A stretch of DNA of 63,763 bases, filler included, from Reclinomonas americana ATCC 50394 (GCA_048213135.1; 21 parts of 21 records of this genome joined end to end with filler, not necessarily neighbours in it); one strand, 5' to 3'; positions 65-62,487 are shown, numbered from the whole stretch's first letter. Notes: generated from the sequence alone by a model not told the origin. Program-made: numbers and translations.

Positions 65-3000
65 CTGCTGATTATTGTACAACAGCGCCCACAGCGTCCC
101 AGTGGCGTACACGCGCACAAACACATCGTCGTCGTCAATCATCGAACCCAGGCACTCGAGGACTGCCGCACTGTACACCACGTGTGCCTTGCACTGCCGC
201 TGCAGCGCCAAGTTGCGCAACACCAGCGCCACCTCGCGTCGCAGTTGCACAATGCCACCGCCGAGGTCGGCCAACTCCAGCAGCACCGAAAACACATTCT
301 GCTCCTGCAACAAGGCCTTTTGCGCGTCCTCAAAGGCCGAGAAGCGCGCGAGGAAGCGTGTCACTGGCAACAGGTACGTACGGTCGGTGCGCGGTCCGCG
401 CACCGTGCCGCGCTGCAGGTGACCGAGACAAAACGCCACCACGCCAGCCTTGAGCATGGTCGCACGCGCCTCCACCACGTGCACCATCGAGCCGAGGAAG
501 TGAATGATCAAATGCTGTTGCGCGGGCGACAGGCGCGAGGTGGCCGAGGTCAGCGAGCCGACCATCGATTCCAGCAGACTCGTGTGCGACGTGCGAGGTT
601 GACTGGCACCGGTGGACGAGGAAGACGATGACGATGAGGCCGGATTGGTCATCGAGAGGGACGTCAGTGCACGCTGCGCCGTCGGTTCTCCCGCGGCCAG
701 ATTGATGGCCAGACACAACACGTCCTCGATCAACTGCGGCACAACAGTGGTCAGACGCCACATGTCGCACATGAGTGGTGCGAGGCGTCCGTCATCCATG
801 GCGCGTGCCTGGGTGACAGGAGAAGTGGTGAGCAGATGGAGAGGGAGAGTAAGAGGAGAGGACGAAGAGGGGAGAGAGAACGAGGGAGAGAGAGTCGTCA
901 ACAGAGAGGAGGGATGTACGAAGAGAAGGCGAGAAGCACAAGAGAGAGAGAATGAGAAGACAGAGGAAAAAGAGAAATAAAGAGAGAAAGAGAGAGCATT
1001 CACGACGATCGTTAAATAGAGGAGGAATCAGTGTCGAGAGACGGGAGTGACAGCGCAATGATGCGGAACGACATGAAAAATGCAACAATGGTCATGAAAA
1101 CAACAGGAAAACGGGAACATTGCAACGAAGAGAAGATGCATACAAGTGAGCAACACGCGAGATACAGGAGCGAAACTAAACAGTGGAATGGAAGAACAAT
1201 GAACTCGAATATATGTGTGTGAGAAAAGAGAGGGCGGAGAACGAAAAGGCAGGCGAGACCTGGAAGAAAGACTCCAACAATAGAGCATGAGACGATAGCA
1301 CAGCATGATGAGACAGGTTTGTCAGCAACGAAGCAGGAACGAGGAAGAGAAAACAAAACAAAATACAGCTGGGAACAAAAGTAAGAACACACCGCGAACG
1401 ACACCTGCATCGAAGTAGAACAGAGGCCGAGGAGAATCGACAGCACAACACTCCTCTCTCTACTCTTCTTCCCTTTCCCCCGCCACCACCCTTTCCCTTC
1501 GCGCCGCACCTTCATCGCCGGCGACTCCTTCAACAAACTCTGCAGCACCTTCACGCACAACGTCGTCTCGTGCAACAGCGGCCGCACATCCTTGACGGTC
1601 ACCGTCACCACCGGCAGTGCCACACCTCGCGCGTGCGCATTGATCAGCGGATAGTTTTCGCCGAGTCGCTGCACGAGCACCTCGAGCAGCTGCGACTCGC
1701 CGGCCACCGCCTTGGCCACGTGCGACACCTCCAGCAGGTGGCAGAGGGCGCGTGTCGACGACAGCAGTTCGCCGTCACTCAAACTCGGCTCCACGCCTGC
1801 CGTGAGATCCTCCAATGCCAGCGTGTTACCGCGTCGCAGACCACTACAAAAGGCCTCGCACAGCGTGCGCGACAGCTTGCGCAGGGCGCCGAGTGGAGAG
1901 TCGGCAGAGGAGTGCGAGTGCTGCTGCACATACAAATCGGCCAGCGATTGGTGATGGGTGAGGGCGGCGGCACCTGGCACATGCACGGCCAGCGCTCGCT
2001 GAAACGCTTGCGTCCACTCGACAGCCACGCTGGCACCGTGAATGATCCACTCGTGCGGGTGCGCCGACACCACGGCACGGCCTCCGGCGTAGTCGGCCAT
2101 CGGTTTGCGCGCGTAGCACCAGGCCATGGTGAGGAGACTGGTGACGGCCTCCAGCAGCGCACCATACACGGGTGTGGCGAAGAGCGGATTCTTCAGCATC
2201 ACGTCACTCGGCATCGCTGTGGCCTCCACCGTAACGGCTGCCGGACCGCGCGGATCCAGCTGCAGCAACGCGGCTTTTGACTCGCTCTTGCCGGTGCGCA
2301 GTGCCAAGGTGACTGGCAGCAACGGTGCAGCGACGTGCTTGTGCAGGTCCGGCAACGCCAGCAGCACGGTGAGCACGTCCCACAGCGGGAAGGCCACCAT
2401 GAGAAGCTGCAGTACAGAGCGACCGTGGCCACCCTGCAGTGGATCTCGTCTACGGTGGCGGAGGTGAGGGGGGTGAATTTATATGCAGGGAGCATGTGGA
2501 AAGTAACGCAACGCCATGGTTGTGGCCGACTGGCCTACAAGAAGCGCACTGGACACGATACTGGCCACCAATTGTGCGCTCTTGACGAGGTAGGTGAGGC
2601 AGTCGCGGCTTTCGACAATGTACGGATGCGTCATGCACTCCAACAGTGCCCATATTGCACCCAGCGCGTGTCCGTCGGCCAGAGCCGTACCGATCGTGCC
2701 GGGGGTGTTGGTCGGCGCCGGTGTCCACTCTAGCGTGGCACGACGGGCGGCAAAGAAGAACAGGCGCGAGGGCGCCCCCAGTAATCTGCGATCACGTGCA
2801 CATTGATTACTATTAGAAGAGAGAGTATGGGGGGACGTGCTCCGTGCACTTTCTCACCTCCACGACACGGGCGAGCAAAAGGCCACAAACGTCGCCCACA
2901 AATCACTCTTCACCAACGCCACAAACAGCGTCTCGGGATCCACCAACAGCGCACGGCTCACCAGCTGCGCAAACAGCGTGCGATGTTCGTCCGTAAAGAC

Positions 3001-52503: not shown

Positions 52504-53109
52504 TCACGCCGCCGCCGCACGACTGCCAAAGCCAAACGAACGCTTCGCCGCCGGCGACGCACGCACCATGATTGCCAACAGTCCCCCATACAACGCGCCC
52601 GCCACCGTGCCCCACATCACGCCGGCGGAGCGGCCTGGGGCGCCCCACAGCATACCCACCACAGCGCCGGCCAGCGGCTTGGTGATGGCGTCGGAGATAC
52701 CGGAAAAGGTGTGTGTCGAACGCATACCAATGTCGGCGGCGGAGAGCAGCGCCGTGAAGGTGCCCAACGACACCGACACAGCCACTCCGTGACGGACGGC
52801 CATCTGTGCCGGGGTGGAGAAAGGTCAGCATGGCACTCGAATCATTCCCGCCCACGGCAGTGTGAGAAGAAGAATCATCGCCCCCTCACACACACCGACG
52901 CACCATGGCCATACTCGGCGCAATCGCAGCCGGCGGCATCAGCGTCAACAGTGGGAAGGTGGCGCGCGGAAAGAATGCGCCCGAGACGGCACCATACAGC
53001 AAGCCGGACGCAAATCCTGCGAGGAATCTCTCGGGTTAACACCACCACCACCACCCTTTCTCTGTGTCACACCCCTGGCCGGCTGGCGCACCGAATATCG
53101 TGAGATTCT
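52504..53109 (-). CDS. Tim17/Tim22/Tim23-family (possibly NDUFA11-like) membrane protein, 5' partial
   Basis: NLTIFG|FASGLLYGAVSGAF..SLGTFTALLSAADIGMR..DAITKPLAGAVVGMLWG..GTVAGALYGGLL: four Gly-zipper TM segments with the D...(L)AGA..G pattern. Confidence 0.65.
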
Positions 53110-53351
53110 NNNNNNNNNNNNNNNNNNNNNNNNNNNNNNNNNNNNNNNNNNNNTTAATTAATTAANNNNNNNNNNNNNNNNNNNNNNNNNNNNNNNNNNN
53201 NNNNNNNNNCAAGAGGGAAGGGTGGGATGGGTGAGGAAAGGAGATAGAGAGAGGGAGGGGGAGAGTGAGGGAGGGAGAGGGAAGGAGAGGTAGGGAGAGG
53301 GAGAAGCCGGAAAGAGACTCCTGTCGACGCAGCGGAGGAAACAGCACGTAC

Positions 53352-55353
53352 CGCCATACAACTGGCGACCCCACACTTCGCGACTGTCGAACAGGCTGTC
53401 GATGTAGAGCCGATGACCCTCCTCCTGCAGCGGGTCCTGGTTGACGGCAATGATCTCCGTGTTGAGGAGCACTACGCAAAAGAGTAAGTCAATATCCATG
53501 AAAGTGCACGATGACATCTCTCTCGCAGCGCCAACCTTCGCGCTTGAAATCGGTAAAGTTGCGCGGGTCCGACGCCACAATCAGCGGCGAGTTCATCAGC
53601 GCCCACATGGAGAACTCGGTGCGGTACTCGTCGTGTGTTTGCAGTCTGTTGCGAGCACACAGTGAGCTGCAATTTACAAGAGCCACACTCTCCTCCTCTC
53701 GACGGCGCACCCCAAGTCAGTCATGAGGAAGTCCAGATAGTTCCAGTAGCAGTCGCCGTTAATGTCGCAACCGGACTGCTGCCACACATTGTGCTTGGCG
53801 CTGTGCTCGATGATTTCGCGCGTCGCATGCGCTGAACCGCTCCACTGGTCGTGGTGATCGGTGGTGGTGCGGCCGGAGTTGGCGACGGCGCGCTGTGGCG
53901 AGAAAAGTGAGAGAGAAGAAGGCAAGCATTATTGCAATGTGGTGACCCTGGTGATGGTGACGCGCTGCAACGAAACTCCCCACTCCCACGGCGACTCGAT
54001 TCCCCACTCGCACATCTCCAGGAACATGGGACGGCCGGTCTTATTCTGCGCCTCCTCCAGCTCGCGGTAAAGTACTTTCGGACCTGCGGCATCCACACGA
54101 TGAGGATGAAGTCTGCACTTCGACAGCAAGTGTGGATGTAACTGTGCGGGAACGTGTTGCACCCTGCAAGCCATGCGCGAGATGAGCATCATGGAACTCG
54201 GCAAGCACGCGAGCTGTCACGCAACAATCCATCTTGATGTAATCCACACCCCAGCTGGCCAGTGTGGCCATGTCCTCCGGGTAGTGATCGAGAGAGCCGG
54301 GGCTGCGGTTGGTGCACACGAGTTTGCCGCTGCAAATGTACACGCCAAAGTAGAAGCCGTGCTGGTGCGCGTAGTCGATGATGGGAGTCAGGCCGGCACT
54401 GGGAGAAGAGGTGGGTGGGGGTGATGGAGTAAGAGGGGAGAGGGAGGTGAAAATGCGACGCAACGGGAATTCAGTGGCATTGGCCTGAAGCTTGCCCTGT
54501 GCGTCGCGCTCGGCGGCAATCCAGCAGTCGTCGAGGTTGATGAACTGTGGAGGTGGGAGTGAGGCGGGAGAGGAGGGGTTATGCGAGGGAAGAATGGCTT
54601 GCCTTGTATCCCGCATCGCGCATGCCTGTGTTGATGATATGAGTGAGACAGAAACGACAAGGAAACGTACATGTCATGTTTTGTGCGATGCCGGCAGTGT
54701 GCGACGGAGTGTGCGAGTGAGCGTCAGGAGTACACTGAACACGCACCATTCTCGATCATGGCGTCCATGACGGAGAAGATCTCGGTCTGCACATGGAGAA
54801 GAGTGTGTGAGCGAGAGAGGGAGGAAAGCAAAGGGGGAAGGAGTGAAGACGCAACTGAGTGGCACACATCGAGGCCGCAATTGGGCGAGAACTGCGACGG
54901 GTGATTGGACTCGGTGCACCAGGTGTTCCAGCCCATCGGCGGCCTGTGCACGGAGAGGGAGAAGGGAGAGGAGTCAAAAGAGGGAAGACAAGATCGGAAA
55001 AATAATAAAGGGCAGTGAGTGAGAAGGCGGTGAAGGCGATGTGCAAGGGAAGGAGCGGGGAAGGGTAGGGGAAGGGGAAGGGGAGGGGAAGGGGAAAGAG
55101 GGAAGAGGGAAGAGGGAAGAGTGAAAGGGAGTGGGTGAATGAGTGAGTGAGTGAGTGACTGAGTGAACGAGTGGACGAAGGGGAAAAAGGAGAAGGAAGA
55201 GAAAGAAAAACAAGGAGAAGAAGAGGCTAAAGAGAGAGAGAGAGAGAGAGAGTGAGTGAGTGAGAGGCAAGAGAAGAGAGAGGAGAGAGAGGAGAGATTA
55301 AGATGAGGGACTGCATGAGTGATTGATTGTAATGAATGCATCATGCCATATGC

Positions 55354-55384
<31 letters not shown>

Positions 55385-55499
55385 TGTGCATGCATTTGAC
55401 AGTGTTAACACTCAACGATCGACCAAGCCCATTGTTCAGCGCACAGACCACCACTGAAACACTGATAAACACACAGAGAAACACAACAGAGTCTCTCAT
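53352..55499 (-). CDS. Secreted/lysosomal GH27 alpha-galactosidase (or alpha-N-acetylgalactosaminidase), 3' partial
   Basis: Signal peptide MRDSVVFLCVFISVSVVVCA then LNNGLGRSPPMGWNTW, GYKFINLDDCW, WGVDYIKMDWC, TGRPMFLEMCEWG, RTTTDH, EYRTEFSMWALMNSPLI and IIAVNQDPL. Confidence 0.95.
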
Positions 55500-55560
55500 A
55501 AAGCGCACAAACACAAAGAGAGAGAGACAATAAATTGCAATCACACAGTGACTCACTCGT

Positions 55561-55592
<32 letters not shown>

Positions 55593-55741
55593 TGTGTGTG
55601 TGTGTGATATGCTGTGTTTGTTGCTTGTGAGAAGAGTGAGAGTGAATGTGTTGTTGAGTGGAAGGCGACTGATGAGCTGCTCTTCTTCTGTTGTGCAAGA
55701 GCAGGAGGAGGAGGAGGAGAGGCGAGGGAAGAGTTGAGTTG

Positions 55742-55795
<54 letters not shown>

Positions 55796-55799
55796 TGTG

Positions 55800-55854
55800 A
55801 GTGTGATGCATTGTGATTGTAATCAGTCACTGATTTCGCTCTTGTTGGTGTGAG

Positions 55855-55903
<49 letters not shown>

Positions 55904-56445
55904 TAGAATGAGAGAGGGCATGCATTGTGATTGCAATCAGTCACTGATTTCGCTCTTGTTTGGTGTCAGATTGAGAGAGGGAGGGAGAGTGAGAGAGAGT
56001 GAGTGAGAGAGAGAGAGTGTTGAGTGTGATGCATTGTGACTGTAATCAGTCACTGTCTCTTCTCTTCTTTGCTCTCAGTTTGAGAGAGAGAGAGAGAGCA
56101 CTGTGAGGGGTGTGTGTGAGAGAGAGAGAAAGAAACCTTTCCATGCATTTTGTTATTGCGATCAGTCTCTCATTCCTCGTGTTCACTGCCTCTTGTCCTC
56201 CTTTGGTCTCAGTTTGAAAGAGAGAGAGCACAATGAGGGTTTGTGTAAGAGAGAGGGAGGCTGCATGCATTTTGTGATTGCGATCAGTCTCTCATTCCTC
56301 TGCTCACTGCCTCTTCTCCTCCTTTGTCTCAGTTTGAGAGGGAGAGAGAGTGCACAATGAAGGCGTATGTGTGAGGAAGGGAGGCGGCATATGCTATCAG
56401 TCTCCTTCCTTGTGCTCACTGTCTCTTTTCTTCTTTGGTCTCAGT

Positions 56446-56498
<53 letters not shown>

Positions 56499-56720
56499 NN
56501 NNNNNNNNNNNNNNNNNNNNNNNNNNNNNNNNNNNNNNNNNNTTAATTAATTAANNNNNNNNNNNNNNNNNNNNNNNNNNNNNNNNNNNNNNNNNNNNGT
56601 GCCCACTGTGTCTTTTCTTCTTTGGTCTCAGTTTGAGAGAACGAGAGCAAGAGAGCATTGTGAGGGCGTATGTGTGAGAGAGGGAGACTGCATGTATGCC
56701 ATCAGTCTCTCTTTCCTCGT
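55800..56720. repeat. Degenerate tandem repeat (about 110-122 bp, 7 or more units) with embedded (GA)n
   Basis: GCATTGTGATTG(T/C)AATCAGTCACTG..TTTGGTCTCAGTTTGAGAGAG units near 55808, 55922, 56031, 56146, 56268, 56388 and 56690. Confidence 0.8.
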
Positions 56721-57114
56721 GCTTTCTGCTTTCTAGTTTCAGATTATGAGTTCTTTCTCACCCTCCTCGCTCGCTTCCTCCTCTGTTCTATGTTCTCTCT
56801 TGTCTCTCACTTGCTTGTGTACCTTCTTCTCGTTCTGCAGTCGCAGTCTTCAAGTCCGCGTGCTATTCCTTGTCTGTGTGCCACTCGCTGCCTTTCTACT
56901 CTACTTGCGCACCTTTTCCGTCGCCTCTCTCAGATTTATGCACAGCCTGGCATCTCTCTCTCCTGTGTCTCTTGCTGCCTTTCGTCTATTCTCCTCTGCG
57001 CCTCTGTTACCTTGCCTGCCCGTCAGTCTTCTTGCGTTTGCCTTGCTCGCTGCTATCTTCGTTCTCTTCCACTAGCTTCCCTCTCACCTCCCCCACTCTT
57101 CCCCCCTTCCTCAG

Positions 57115-58467
57115 AAGCCGCCCTGTTCGACCGCTGGGCCCCCGGACCACCCACACCCTTGTCGCAGACGGTGTTCTGCCAGAGTATCGAGTTCCTGGCA
57201 CCCGACGTGCAGGCCGAGAATTCCGTTCTGCAGCAGCGCGTGGATCAGCACATTGTGCGTGTGCTGCAGCAAAATGGCAAGCCATCGTCTCAGCTGCTTG
57301 GCAACTTTGTGCAACAGGCCTCGCGGGGAGCGATTGTGCAAGATTACCAGTTTCGACAAGTTGCGTGTCGATCGAGTTTACGTGCGCTGCGCCAATGTGC
57401 TCATTGATTCTGGCAGATCTGGAACGGCCCTCTGCGCGGCAACTACTTGTATTCAGAGTTGCGACGTGTTTCTCCAGCCTTGAATGTCACCGTCTGACTG
57501 ACACGTGCGCGCAGAGTGGCCTTTCCGCGCTCCCAATTCCTACTTCGCTTCCGTTTCACGGGCGTCAGCTACGAGTGCCACGTCAACGACATGCATCCAC
57601 AACCAACGAATGATAATGGTGCGCATCAATCGACCCTTTTCTTCCCTCGTCTACTCTTTCACTTCAATCCCTCGCCCCCAGATTACCACACGCGAAAGGA
57701 TGTGTGGGTACGCAATCCCAATCGCCACCTGGCCCCACTGCGCTCGCTAGAGGACTCGGTCGGCGGCGACATTGACTACCTGGCCGGTAAATTCGGCGAC
57801 CACATTCCCTGGCACGAGTTGCGACACGGCGAGCCGTACGAGGCCTCGGACACGATTCTACAGTTGGCCATGTATCCGGATTCGGATTGGGAGCAGGCGA
57901 GGCAGCTGCCTGCGGGAGAAGGTTTGTAAAGGGAAGGGGATTTGGATGGGAGCCTGGGCACAGTGAGTGTGTTACCTATGCGTGTGCTTCGTGTGCTCTC
58001 TCTCTCTCTCTCTCTCGTGTCTTTCACTCAGAGTGTGTTGATTGCGCATGTACGGTTGTGCCCATCCTTCCTCCACCTCACGCCGCCCTCCCTCCTCCCT
58101 TCCCCATTCCTCAGTCTGGCAACCCCTGGGCGACCCCACCTACACCACGCTCTTCGCCAAGAACGTCGACGGGCATGCCGAAGACGCCGTGCACCAGTGG
58201 TGCGATGTCCATGCCTTCGAGTCGATTGCACGCCGCTTGCCGACCGCAGGCCCCGCCTTGCAACTGCCCTCGGCCGCCATGATATGGTGGCTCATCCGCT
58301 TGTGTGCCAGTGTGGAGCAGGTGGCGCAGCGCGTGCTCACCGGGCCCTTTGTGGCGAACACGGTGGGGCGGCAGCCACCGGCGGCGGAGAGCAGTGGGGA
58401 GGCGCAACCACCACCAAAACCACCGCTCGAGCAGCTCATCCTGACCGTGCCCGCGGCGATCAAATAA
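57115..58467 (+). CDS. Hypothetical protein, 5 exons, 5' partial
   Basis: Phase-consistent exons EAALFDRWAPG..QFRQ|IWNGPLRGNY..|VAFPRSQFLLRFRF..|DYHTRKDVWVRNP..|VWQPLGDP..PAAIK*. Confidence 0.7.
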
Positions 58468-58550
58468 AACCCCACGTAGATTTACGACAAGATTGTGTTC
58501 CAGATTTTTTACCAACGGTACTCTCTCTTCCCATTTTTTCTTCCTCATCG

Positions 58551-60311
58551 TCAGCGAGCACGGGTGCACATCTCCGGAACAGTGATGGTCGGCTCGAAGT
58601 ACTGTGTGCCCTCGGGAAGACCGCCAGGGTTTTGCGCCTCGCCCTGCGAATTAATCAAAGTCAGCAGACAATCGCAAAGGGAGAGAGGGACAGAGAGAGA
58701 GAGAGAAGAGAGGTATCTCAACCATTGACATTCCCCCCACGCATGTGTGCTTCTGCAGCAATACGCTCTCTGTTCCGTGAGAGTAAACACGAAAATATCT
58801 GCATCTGACATTTAACGCAGATGTGCGACATCCTCTGCGTCCACGCGACTGAAACTTGCTTGCTGTCACACTCACTCGCTCTTCCTCACTCACAATTCTG
58901 CCGCGTTGCACTGCACGAGAATGCACACTAATTGCGCGCCTATCTACTCCGAATGTCAAAATTTCTCCCTTTCCTCGCCATTCTCTCTCCCTCTCCCTCT
59001 CCCTCTCCCTCTCCCTCTCCCTCTCCCTCTCCCTCTCCCTCTCCCACTCCCTCTCCCTCTCCCACTCTCTCTCCCTCTCCCACTCTCTCTCCCTCTCCCT
59101 CTCCGTCTCCCCTCTCCCCTCTCTCCCCTTTTCNNNNNNNNNNNNNNNNNNNNNNNNNNNNNNNNNNNNNNNNNNNNTTAATTAATTAANNNNNNNNNNN
59201 NNNNNNNNNNNNNNNNNNNNNNNNNNNNNNNNNCTCTCCCTCTCCCTCCCTACTCCCTCTCCCTCTCCTACTCTCTCTCCTCCTCCACCTCTCCTCTCCT
59301 CTCCCTCTCCGTCTCCTCTCCCTCTCCTCCTTCCTCTCCTCTCCCTCTCCCTCTCCCTCTCCTCTCCCTCCTCCCTCTCCCTCTCCCTCTCCCTCTCCCT
59401 CTCCCTCTCCCTCTCCCTCTCCCACTCCCACTCCCACTCCCACTCCCACTCCCACTCCCACTCCCACTCCCACTCCCTCTCCCTCCTTCCCTTTCCCTCA
59501 ACACTCACCGGTGGCCCCCGTGCGATTTCTGGCTCATCGCCCAACTCCAGAATCTGCGCCATCATGTACTCGCCACTGCAAAACATCCTGCACCCGAACT
59601 CGCACGTCAGCATTTCACCCTTGTTTGCACAGTGAATGAGGCGCAAAAAACACGCAACATGGCCGCCAGTTGCTGCTGTGGGATCACCGAGTACTGCGCC
59701 GGCGAAATCACAATGCGATCACTCGCCCTGTGAATCGCCTCATACGCAAAGCCATCCCGCGGCGGCTCGCCACTGCCAAAGCGCATGCGGCGGAACAAAG
59801 CTATGCACTCGCGACCTTGGTTGACGGTGCCACGAAGACTGCAAAGGGAAAAATCAGCGCACAAGGAAGAGCACGGCACACAACAGAGTAACAATGGACG
59901 CAACTCGTCGACCTCCACACGACGACTCAGCACGGCACGTGCACGAATGCCCGTGTTGACGGACAGATCCACATGCTCCACCACAGTCTCCATCTCTGCC
60001 TCGACCATCACCATGCGCTGCAGCTCCGAGACCGGGGTGCGAATTGAGCTGAGAGGGGAAAGTGTCAAAGAATGCACAGAATGAAAAATGATCAAAGAAG
60101 AACAAACCAGTCACCACGGCGGTCACCAAAGCGCTGCAGGACCAAGTCGGCAATGGCCAGCATGTTCTTGTTGAACGCGGGACCACGCTCCTGCCAAAAG
60201 CTGGCCACGTCGATTTGGTGCAGGCACGCGTGCACAATGTCGGCACACTGCTTGGGCGTCGGCAGCAGGTCGTCGAGCATCTCAGGGCTGACAGGGCCGG
60301 AGGCGGGCAAC
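58551..60311 (-). CDS. Hypothetical protein, multi-exon, 5' end unresolved
   Basis: Phase-consistent exons [17 protein letters not shown].., [12 protein letters not shown].., [11 protein letters not shown].., [11 protein letters not shown].. and a last exon [13 protein letters not shown]. Confidence 0.62.
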
Positions 60312-61278: not shown

Positions 61279-62129
61279 TCACTCATAATCACGCGATACA
61301 TCCACTCGCGGCGCAAAGGGACTCTGCTTGGCTGGCCGGCCGCCACCACCACCACCGCGACCAGAGGAGGGGCGCGAACTGGACCCACCACCATCAGCTG
61401 CTGCTGCGGCGCTCCGATGTTGCTGGCGACGCGACGACGACGACGATCCACCACGGTCACGAGCGGACAACTTGCCGACGACGACAGCAGGCTGCCGGTC
61501 ACTGTCGGGTTTCCGGTGTCCCGACCACGTGACCTGCTTCACGGGCGCCGGGTAGTCCTGTTGCGCAACACCCCCCATTGGTAAACGCGACAAAGCCGCG
61601 CAATCACGACAGGACACTATTCGGTGGCTCACCACGCCAATGACACACCGCGCCGCCTGCTGTTGGGCGGCCGACATGCGAGACGGCTGGTGTACAAACT
61701 CGCGAGGCACGCCGCGCAGCACTGGCAGGTAGTGTCGCACGAACTCGCCCTCCTGTGAGTGGGGAAGTGAGGGAGGGTGCGCAAATAAAAATATGCGGCA
61801 CTGACGAACCGGATCGTAGGTGGCCGCTTGCTTCAACACGTTGAAGTAGCGGTCTTCACGTGGGTCCAGTCCAACTAAGGAGGGGAGGGTGAGGTGGTGC
61901 ACAGCAAGGAGAGGGTGGGGAGGGAAAGGATTACTCGCCTCCGGCGACATATTGCCAGTTTCCCCTGTTTTCAGCGAGTGTGAGCGGATGTGGGCGAGGA
62001 GATGAGAGGCCAGGCACTCACCAGTTGGAGGAGACGTCTTCAGTGGGCAAGAAGAGGGCGGAGTAAGTGGAGACGGTCGAGGGTGAGAGCAGAAGAAGTG
62101 ACACCAACCATAATCAATCAGCTGGCTCT
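61279..62129 (-). CDS. Cryptochrome DASH (photolyase family), C-terminal FAD-binding region; 5' part lost in the gap
   Basis: Spliced [65 protein letters not shown]; the GxDPREDR.FN..KQ motif is characteristic of CRY-DASH. Confidence 0.9.
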
Positions 62130-62487
62130 CTGCGATCGCGAGGAGTCAGTCAGCAAGGGAAGGGGAGGGGAGGGAAGGGAGGGAGGGAGGAGGAGGGGAA
62201 GGGGAAGGGGAAGGGAGGGAAGGGAAGGGAGGGAAGGGAGGGNNNNNNNNNNNNNNNNNNNNNNNNNNNNNNNNNNNNNNNNNNNNTTAATTAATTAANN
62301 NNNNNNNNNNNNNNNNNNNNNNNNNNNNNNNNNNNNNNNNNNAGAGAGAGAGAGAGAGATGAGAGATGTGAGAGAGGGGGGAGAGGAGGGAGGGAGAGAT
62401 GCGACTGTCTCAGAGACTCAATAGGGAGACTGATTGCGAGGCAAGGCAAGACTGAGAGAAGCACACACATACGCACACACACACATA

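Follow-up and report, generated by a model that had tools for sequence, protein, structure and literature searches.

A second, one-base-shifted class of 5′ splice sites tied to non-G exon ends in a window of the Reclinomonas americana genome

How is the start of an intron specified when the exon before it does not end in G? The question is raised by a 63,763-nucleotide (nt) stretch of the genome of Reclinomonas americana ATCC 50394 (GCA_048213135.1; 21 records joined with filler), which is called here the window and which is eukaryotic, intron-rich and of about 55% G+C. A sequence-only reading of the window had traced, beside ordinary donors, 33 donors of the form GTT-N-N-G-T and had taken them for a class of its own, shifted by one base and used when the exon does not end in G. 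Our data show a discrete and abundant GTT class, tied to non-G exon ends, that matches the normal donor consensus only when this is moved one base into the intron; to that extent the earlier interpretation stands. How these donors are recognized is a separate question, to which we give a graded answer below.

The shifted donors as a class

GTT is present on the implied strand at all 33 positions. The heptamers (the cut is marked by ^ where exon bases are given) are GTTGCGT at 19 sites, GTTGAGT at 5, GTTTCGT at 3, GTTGCGC at 2, and GTTACGT, GTTGCGG, GTTGGGT and GTTACAT at one each; the proposed consensus is followed strictly by 29 of the 33, and 20763, 42806, 6211 and 54142 deviate from it at +6 or +7. 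All had been listed as following a non-G exon end, and G is indeed found at −1 in none of them. In the window as a whole GTTGCGT occurs 26 times, against 8.3 copies expected under an order-2 Markov model for both strands, and the base before it is A in 12 copies, T in 9, C in 5 and never G. Within strand territories, which were assigned from self-trained coding segments, 23 copies lie in sense and none in antisense orientation; for GTTG[AC]GT the numbers are 30 and 2.

Introns were catalogued with a purpose-written Viterbi decoder of spliced open reading frames (ORFs), the codon log-odds of which were bootstrapped from the confirmed exons of RNR2 and GH27. Training on long ORFs was dropped because low-complexity, CT-rich ORFs within introns took it over and the output made no sense. 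Acceptors were scored by the base before AG and by a CT[C/G]A[C/T] motif 10–48 nt upstream, and by nothing else. The first run was donor-neutral, with an equal score for every GT and no donor motif; in the refined run the donor model was restricted to intron positions and blind to exon bases, so that the exon end could not steer the choice. Donors with G at +5 were called normal and those with T at +3, G at +6 and no G at +5 shifted, hence +3 and +6 of the shifted class and +5 of the normal class are criteria and not independent evidence.

In the donor-neutral run the commonest donor heptamer was GTTGCGT, with 11 of 106 calls compared with 23 of 3599 sense-strand GT sites (p = 1e-10). Unsupervised clustering of these calls, by a mixture of two matrices and a background from a random start, gave one cluster G^GT[G/T][A/C]GT (weight 0.35, G at −1 in 85%) and another [A/T/C]^GTTG[C/A]GT (weight 0.17, G at −1 in 2%). 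The refined catalogue holds 106 introns, of which 58 are normal, 31 shifted, 1 both and 16 other, and 51 of the 106 are at most 80 nt long. The shifted share is 31 in 106, where 'roughly a quarter' of introns had been estimated by eye. From the list of 33, the donor-neutral run recovered 15 sites and the refined run 25; together with 54142, to which only homology points, 26 are supported.

The tie to the exon end is strong. With a donor model that contains no exon bases, the −1 base of normal donors is G in 50 of 58 cases, that of shifted donors in 1 of 31 (Fisher p = 2.9e-15); the donor-neutral run alone gives 32 of 45 and 1 of 19 (p = 8.9e-7). The departures from this rule had been put at about seven non-G exon ends in the normal register and about three G-ending exons with a shifted donor; the first figure is close to ours (eight), the second is reduced to a single case.

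Under the matrix of the normal class, the score of shifted donors rises from −13.6 bits at offset 0 to +8.8 bits at offset +1, while normal donors reach 7.7 bits over the same columns. When the columns are aligned accordingly, the −1 G of normal donors (50/58) faces the +1 G of shifted ones (31/31), the invariant +2 T faces +3 T (31/31, a class criterion), +3 (G 42, T 12 of 58) faces +4 (G 27, T 4 of 31), +6 T (43/58) faces +7 T (27/31), +7 (G 28, C 18 of 58) faces +8 (G 13, C 8 of 31), and on the exon side the normal −2 (G 6/58) faces the shifted −1 (G 1/31). The sole systematic difference between the classes is that T replaces the usual +1 G. Likewise, the mean number of ungapped pairs that shifted donors can form with canonical U1 is 4.2 at the canonical register and 6.6 one base downstream.

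The exon side of this alignment bears on a bulged register, in which the +1 G would pair with U1 position 8 and the +2 U with position 7, the +3 U would bulge out and pairing would resume at +4. Both +2 and +3 are U, and either is able to pair with position 7; one-nucleotide bulges at +2/+3 are described for human sites in Tan et al. 2016 (PMC4856993), and the bulged and asymmetric-loop registers given there resemble our donors in the extra intron nucleotide between GU and the equivalent of +5G/+6U. A bulge, however, predicts a helpful G at −1, one that contributes an extra pair and is expected as often as among normal donors (50/58); it is seen in 1 of 31 shifted donors and before none of the 26 copies of GTTGCGT. 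The −1 column of the shifted class is poor in G, like the normal −2, and this resemblance favours a true shift of register, which makes the bulge improbable in our view.

Shifted introns also differ in phase: 12 of 31 lie in phase 2, compared with 9 of 58 normal introns (overall phase test, p = 0.044). In phase 2 the exon-end G is a second codon position, and enrichment there is expected if shifted donors serve exon ends where G is hard to encode. The bias suggests a route by which the usual requirement for an exon-end G can be relaxed.

Beyond the donor the two classes look alike. All 31 shifted and 58 normal introns start with GT and end with AG, as the decoder demanded; the 3′ end is CAG in 28 and 49 of them, respectively, and the CT[C/G]A[C/T] branch motif is present in 24 and 47, counts that lean towards the motif since the acceptor model rewarded it. 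The median distance of this motif to the 3′ end is 17.5 nt in shifted and 20 nt in normal introns, and intron lengths are similar. The best explanation of these features is that shifted introns are ordinary U2-type GT-AG introns which would carry a second, abundant kind of 5′ splice site. U12-type introns have the 5′ end RTATCCTT and the branch sequence TCCTTAAC. They are comparable as a small, separate class whose 5′ consensus is tight, but both of their motifs are absent here, where introns with the GTTGCGT donor share branch motif and CAG acceptor with normal ones. Introner elements are comparable in giving many introns an identical 5′ end. They show similarity along the intron, whereas the 106 introns have none beyond +8 and do not group into families: all-against-all blastn returned four rows of 15–17 nt, which is chance level, and no intron family.

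Junctions in RNR2, GH27, NDUFA8 and SEC22

Protein homology confirms eight of the 33 junctions at residue level (42806, 42276, 54855, 54464, 54225, 54142, 53976 and 35108). At these, in RNR2, GH27 and NDUFA8, removal of the intron gives an open frame colinear with homologues; the other shifted donors are ab initio calls only. Cutting at the second GT of the motif, or moving the 5′ cut alone by one base, was rejected, as either breaks the reading frames of the homology-confirmed junctions.

For RNR2 (minus strand), alignment of two ORFs to solved R2 structures in the PDB, combined with direct reading of the sequence, yielded three introns. The shifted donor GCA^GTTGCGC (42800–42806) opens a 65-nt intron, 42806-42742, that ends TGCAG^GAG and is placed by PDB alignments, sequence reading and the ab initio call alike. 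A normal intron, ATG^GTGCGG to TGCAG^GAA, is 60 nt long, in frame and stop-free, and follows from R2 alignments and sequence reading. The shifted donor CAC^GTTGAGT (42270–42276) opens a 71-nt intron, 42276-42206, that ends GACAG^CAA and is given by PDB alignments and called ab initio. The best true RNR2 matches are about 73% identical. We rejected the top match, a trypanosomatid protein, as a relative, since an internal duplication matched the query twice and inflated the score; two database RNR2 proteins (P0121 and P0122, one labelled Porcisia hertigi) have such a duplicated core and a doubled score, and are not relatives. Among 80 metagenome loci with RNR2 there was no close relative, and an intron at the window's position occurs in 0 of the 15 whose boundaries were examined. 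One of the loci (L011:3232-3320, 56% G+C) has an exon 84% identical and an intron a few codons later than that of the window; this intron starts GTACGT, is rich in CCCT repeats and is similar in style to the window's introns, and the locus may belong to a distantly related alga or protist.

The largest set comes from GH27, also on the minus strand, which was spliced in silico at nine introns and compared with a hidden Markov model (HMM) built from 77 of 120 homologues. Five introns are of the shifted class (54855, 54464, 54225, 54142 and 53976), three are normal and one is GC-AG (54602). The spliced product is free of stops and matches HMM positions 33–319 in a single unbroken alignment of 327.5 bits, while the strongest single-ORF matches of the unspliced gene score 71.5, 34.5 and 32.2 bits; identity in GH27 matches is at most 42%. 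Both the HMM alignment and the ab initio calls place the donors TCA^GTTGCGT (54849–54855, intron of 69 nt), CCC^GTTGCGT (54458–54464, 66 nt), ATT^GTTGCGT (54219–54225, 62 nt) and GGA^GTTTCGT (53970–53976, 84 nt). The 62-nt intron precedes a mini-exon of 21 nt (54143-54163), which is followed by a 59-nt intron with the atypical donor ACA^GTTACAT (54136–54142); this donor lacks the +6 G, fits neither class, was not called ab initio and is known by homology only. Splicing at 54225 and 54142 gives exactly the family spacing, as in the GH27 HMM length, between the D-x-C-N motif and G-R-P (KMDWCN...GRP). The GC-AG intron, CAAG^GCAAGCC ... CCACAG^TT (54545-54602, 58 nt), is required by the unbroken HMM alignment.

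In NDUFA8 (plus strand) the donor GGC^GTTGCGT (35108–35114), which is called ab initio, opens a 601-nt intron that spans a gap of the window, and the exons on both sides align to consecutive residues of the plant NDUA8 chain. In SEC22 (plus strand) two shifted donors are called ab initio, TCA^GTTGCGT (13592–13598, intron of 65 nt) and AGA^GTTGCGT (14124–14130, in-frame intron of 69 nt). Alignment to Sec22b covers the central exons, beginning at chain residue 64 in the exon downstream of the first intron and stopping at the second donor; the small flanking exons, upstream of the 13592 intron and downstream of the 14124 intron, gave no PDB match, and they are short. These two putative junctions thus rest on ab initio calls and a partial Sec22b alignment. 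Several short introns are in frame and free of stops, namely 42508-42567 (minus) in RNR2 and 13818-13976 and 14124-14192 (plus) in SEC22. Stop-to-stop ORFs run straight through them, and ORF-based gene calls would add spurious peptides.

As for the gene names of the sequence-only reading, RNR2, GH27, SEC22, NDUFA8 and Kelch were confirmed. Rotatin, NBAS and DCAF4-like found no confirmation in single-exon Pfam scans, which on single small exons are too insensitive to map GH27, SEC22 or NDUFA8.

How the shifted donors may be read

The best explanation, and one that we consider reasonably probable, is a U1-type pairing shifted by one position, with the cut set later at GU. A single seven-base signal, G-[G/T]-T-[G/T]-[A/C]-G-T, would then serve all donors, with the cut 5′ of its first GT. 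Where its second base is G, the cut would come after the first G and the normal class G^GTGMGT would result; where it is T, the first G would itself be intron +1, which would give the shifted class H^GTTGMGT. The 5′ end of a U1-type small nuclear RNA (snRNA) would pair with the signal alike in both classes, so that the C normally opposite the exon-final G would meet the intron +1 G in the shifted class, one mismatch opposite +2 U would be tolerated, and the catalytic spliceosome would fix the cut later at GU. The exon end would be freed from needing a G because the intron supplies it. Both the role of U1 as reader and the position of the cut at GT are inferred.

Several points weigh against this reading, some concerning the catalogue and some the pairing. 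The gene finder behind the catalogue is our own and learned from the same 64-kb window; it overlooks short exons and introns that are in frame and stop-free. Of the 106 donors, 16 belong to neither class, and 7 of the 33 listed sites were not recovered (10732, 6211, 19222, 20763, 20867, 45190 and 55416), most of them bordering short or 5′-terminal exons. Sliding both intron ends by one base (TT...AGN) keeps the reading frame, and protein homology is blind to such a slide. Only the general chemistry of splicing speaks against a joint slide of this kind. As to pairing, we predicted duplexes with ViennaRNA and the canonical U1 5′ end as printed in Tan et al. 2016, which may not be the U1 of this organism: the mean is −1.9 kcal/mol for shifted and −7.1 kcal/mol for normal donors, and deletion of the extra U from shifted donors gives a slightly better −3.0 kcal/mol. 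The weak duplex and this gain mean that canonical U1 pairing alone does not explain the use of H^GTTGCGT over H^GTGCGT. With the same 5′ end, from which that of the organism may differ, the +1 G is paired with U1 position 9 in the optimal folds of 6 of 31 shifted donors. Finally, shifted donors have 28 C and 3 A at +5, compared with 23 C and 24 A at the matching +4 of normal donors (p = 1.9e-4). This preference is not predicted by a plain shift of one reader, and no simple model that we tried explains it; taken with the weak duplex, it would be expected of a U1, the organism's own or a second one, that pairs with G and C there. The earlier suggestion had left room for a variant snRNA, and both observations fit that branch of it better than a plain shift of canonical U1.

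The points on the catalogue bear on the possibility that the class is an artefact of chance motifs, mis-traced intron ends or the shared ends of transposon-like introners. Besides the seven sites without confirmation, a local open-frame test (25 open codons per side, score of at least 15) failed to separate listed sites (24/33) from random GT sites (159/400). The strand bias of 23 to 0, the selection of the sites by a donor-neutral gene finder, the eight homology-confirmed junctions and the lack of conservation after +8, or of any inter-intron similarity beyond chance matches of 15–17 nt, all run counter to it. An artefact is already largely refuted by these data, and we find it barely credible.

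The points on pairing lead to another possibility, that a dedicated second U1-type snRNA with the 5′ end ...ACGCAAC... instead of ...ACUUACC... reads GUUGCGU, two snRNAs thus serving two classes. It would account for the shifted class being sharper (+4 G 27/31, +5 C 28/31) than the normal one (+3 G 42/58, +4 A 24 and C 23), for the choice of C over A at +5, which is opposite to the pairing preference of canonical U1, and for the very weak duplex predicted with the latter. However, a search of the window with Rfam gave no snRNA at gathering thresholds, the only matches with E ≤0.5 being microRNA (miRNA) and small nucleolar RNA (snoRNA) look-alikes on microsatellite hairpins, and all 26 heptamers complementary to such a 5′ end are donors or likely donors. 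Compensation for one mismatch also produces a sharper consensus, and the minor forms GTTTCGT and GTTACGT mirror normal GTTCGT and GTACGT, which fits a single reader. We regard a second U1 as unlikely, though worth keeping in mind. Human variant U1 (vU1) paralogues (bioRxiv 10.1101/2025.09.14.676199) illustrate that several U1 species could in principle read different donor sets; in the window nothing speaks to such variants.

The weak predicted U1 duplex would also agree with recognition independent of U1, in which GTTGCGT is recognized directly by a protein, or later on by U6/U5, and the likeness to a shifted consensus is secondary. The introns are mostly very short (51/106 at most 80 nt), and contacts made during intron definition could carry much of the specificity. 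Against this, agreement with the normal consensus, column by column, at offset +1 and with the exon side included, would hardly arise by coincidence, and such recognition seems very improbable to us.

The shifted U1-type register that we prefer has a known counterpart, since Tan et al. 2016, with reference to Roca and Krainer 2009, describe human sites at which U1 is shifted by one position. In the mammalian sites every U1 pair moves by one place while cleavage stays at GU, and binding is uncoupled from the choice of the cut, which is the likeness to our donors. What differs is scale and form: according to Tan et al. 2016, all validated noncanonical registers together make up about 1.5% of 201,541 human 5′ splice sites, whereas in the window one register takes 31 of 106 introns, and it has, unlike the human shifted sites, a tight consensus of its own, GTTGCGT, and is bound almost without exception to non-G exon ends. 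Full-text literature searches, the coverage of which does not extend to Roca and Krainer 2009 and Roca et al. 2012, returned no description of GTTGCGT-type donors or of an abundant shifted class in any organism.

A bolder and rather doubtful proposal is that 5′ splice-site recognition may have been remodelled in this lineage as a code of two registers, via a re-tuned or second U1-type snRNA that pairs with GUUGCGU. If so, the definition of about three in ten introns would be 'off' by one base, exons would no longer have to end in the usual G, and introns could occupy codon positions that are avoided in other eukaryotes. Should RNA data confirm the shifted junctions, a mechanism of rare human sites would have turned into a major mode of intron definition with a cut site independent of U1. 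The window's donors would then offer a large matched set of substrates for the question of how U1, U6 and Prp8 fix the cut, and would predict a specific feature in the U1 genes of the organism. Gene finders with a single donor matrix would, in that case, mis-predict roughly three in ten introns in the genome.

Remaining donors and other features of the window

The other listed donors in the refined catalogue were called ab initio. On the minus strand these are GGC^GTTGCGT (2506–2512, 63-nt intron), ATT^GTTGCGT (3221–3227, 72 nt, present already in the first neutral run), TGT^GTTGCGT of the Kelch gene (17637–17643, 447 nt), CAT^GTTGCGT (40119–40125, 337 nt), GAA^GTTTCGT (44866–44872, 179 nt), CGA^GTTGAGT (45858–45864, 64 nt), CCT^GTTGCGT (48329–48335, 64 nt), AGA^GTTGCGT (49726–49732, 62 nt), CAT^GTTGCGT (59652–59658, 71 or 90 nt, the acceptor being uncertain) and CGA^GTTGCGT (59898–59904, 66 nt). 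The plus strand has AAA^GTTTCGT (21709–21715, 65 nt), TTT^GTTGCGT (21883–21889, 70 nt), ACT^GTTGCGT (22924–22930, 61 nt), ACA^GTTGCGT (26408–26414, 64 nt), GCC^GTTGCGT (28474–28480, 239 nt) and CAA^GTTGCGT (57360–57366, 57 nt).

Six shifted donors go beyond the earlier list (27751, 28874, 31374, 33860, 39345 and 57458), and all are ab initio calls only. Five are on the plus strand: TCG^GTTTCGT (27751–27757, 75-nt intron), which is the sole case of a G-ending exon with a shifted donor, AGT^GTTGAGC (28874–28880, 51 nt), GAA^GTTGCGT (31374–31380, 67 nt), CTT^GTTGCGA (33860–33866, 164 nt, found in pass 4 only) and AGA^GTTGCGA (57458–57464, 57 nt). The sixth, TCT^GTTGCGT (39339–39345, 272 nt), is on the minus strand.

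Turning to the listed sites that were not recovered, the motif is present on the minus strand at TCA^GTTGAGT (10726–10732) and ACT^GTTACGT (19216–19222), and no intron was called at either. At CAA^GTTGCGG (6205–6211, minus) the models preferred an in-phase donor 42 nt upstream (6253). AAC^GTTGGGT (45184–45190, minus) has G at both +5 and +6, and ATC^GTTGAGT (55410–55416, minus) lies upstream of the GH27 domain, beyond the coverage of the HMM. Two plus-strand sites that were not called by the gene finder look right by eye. TTC^GTTGCGC (20763–20769) would open a 76-nt intron after a first coding exon of 41 nt that begins with the ATG at 20722, with a CTGAC branch and a TGCAG acceptor, and GAT^GTTGAGT (20867–20873) would end a 28-nt exon, its intron entering a gap.

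Three further plus-strand copies of GTTGCGT were noted from sequence only. They stand at 36345–36351, a likely donor of an unplaced plus-strand gene, at 37392–37398 and at 38022–38028, all in a 2-kb stretch without strand assignment; the one at 37392–37398 has CTCAC ... GCGCAG about 70 nt further on and is a likely intron start. The coding model found no exon and Pfam no match around them at 36.3–38.0 kb, and this region is probably an unplaced plus-strand gene with shifted donors.

The window is interrupted by 20 gaps, each written as a six-frame stop linker of 100 bases built from 44 N, TTAATTAATTAA and 44 N (for example 21110-21209). Microsatellites such as (GAGT)n, (GA)n and (TTC)n adjoin most of the gaps, and genes run on correctly across them. 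At 11450-11686 an (AG)28 tract and the imperfect (TC)60 behind it fold into a long hairpin, which attracts spurious sub-threshold Rfam matches to miRNAs and snoRNAs on both strands. Tandem duplications with units of 109–122 nt are present in the non-coding stretches 22458-22680 and 55748-56390. An ORF at 61282-62145 (minus), which had been entered earlier only among 'others', contains the FAD-binding domain of DNA photolyase/cryptochrome (E = 6.7e-8).

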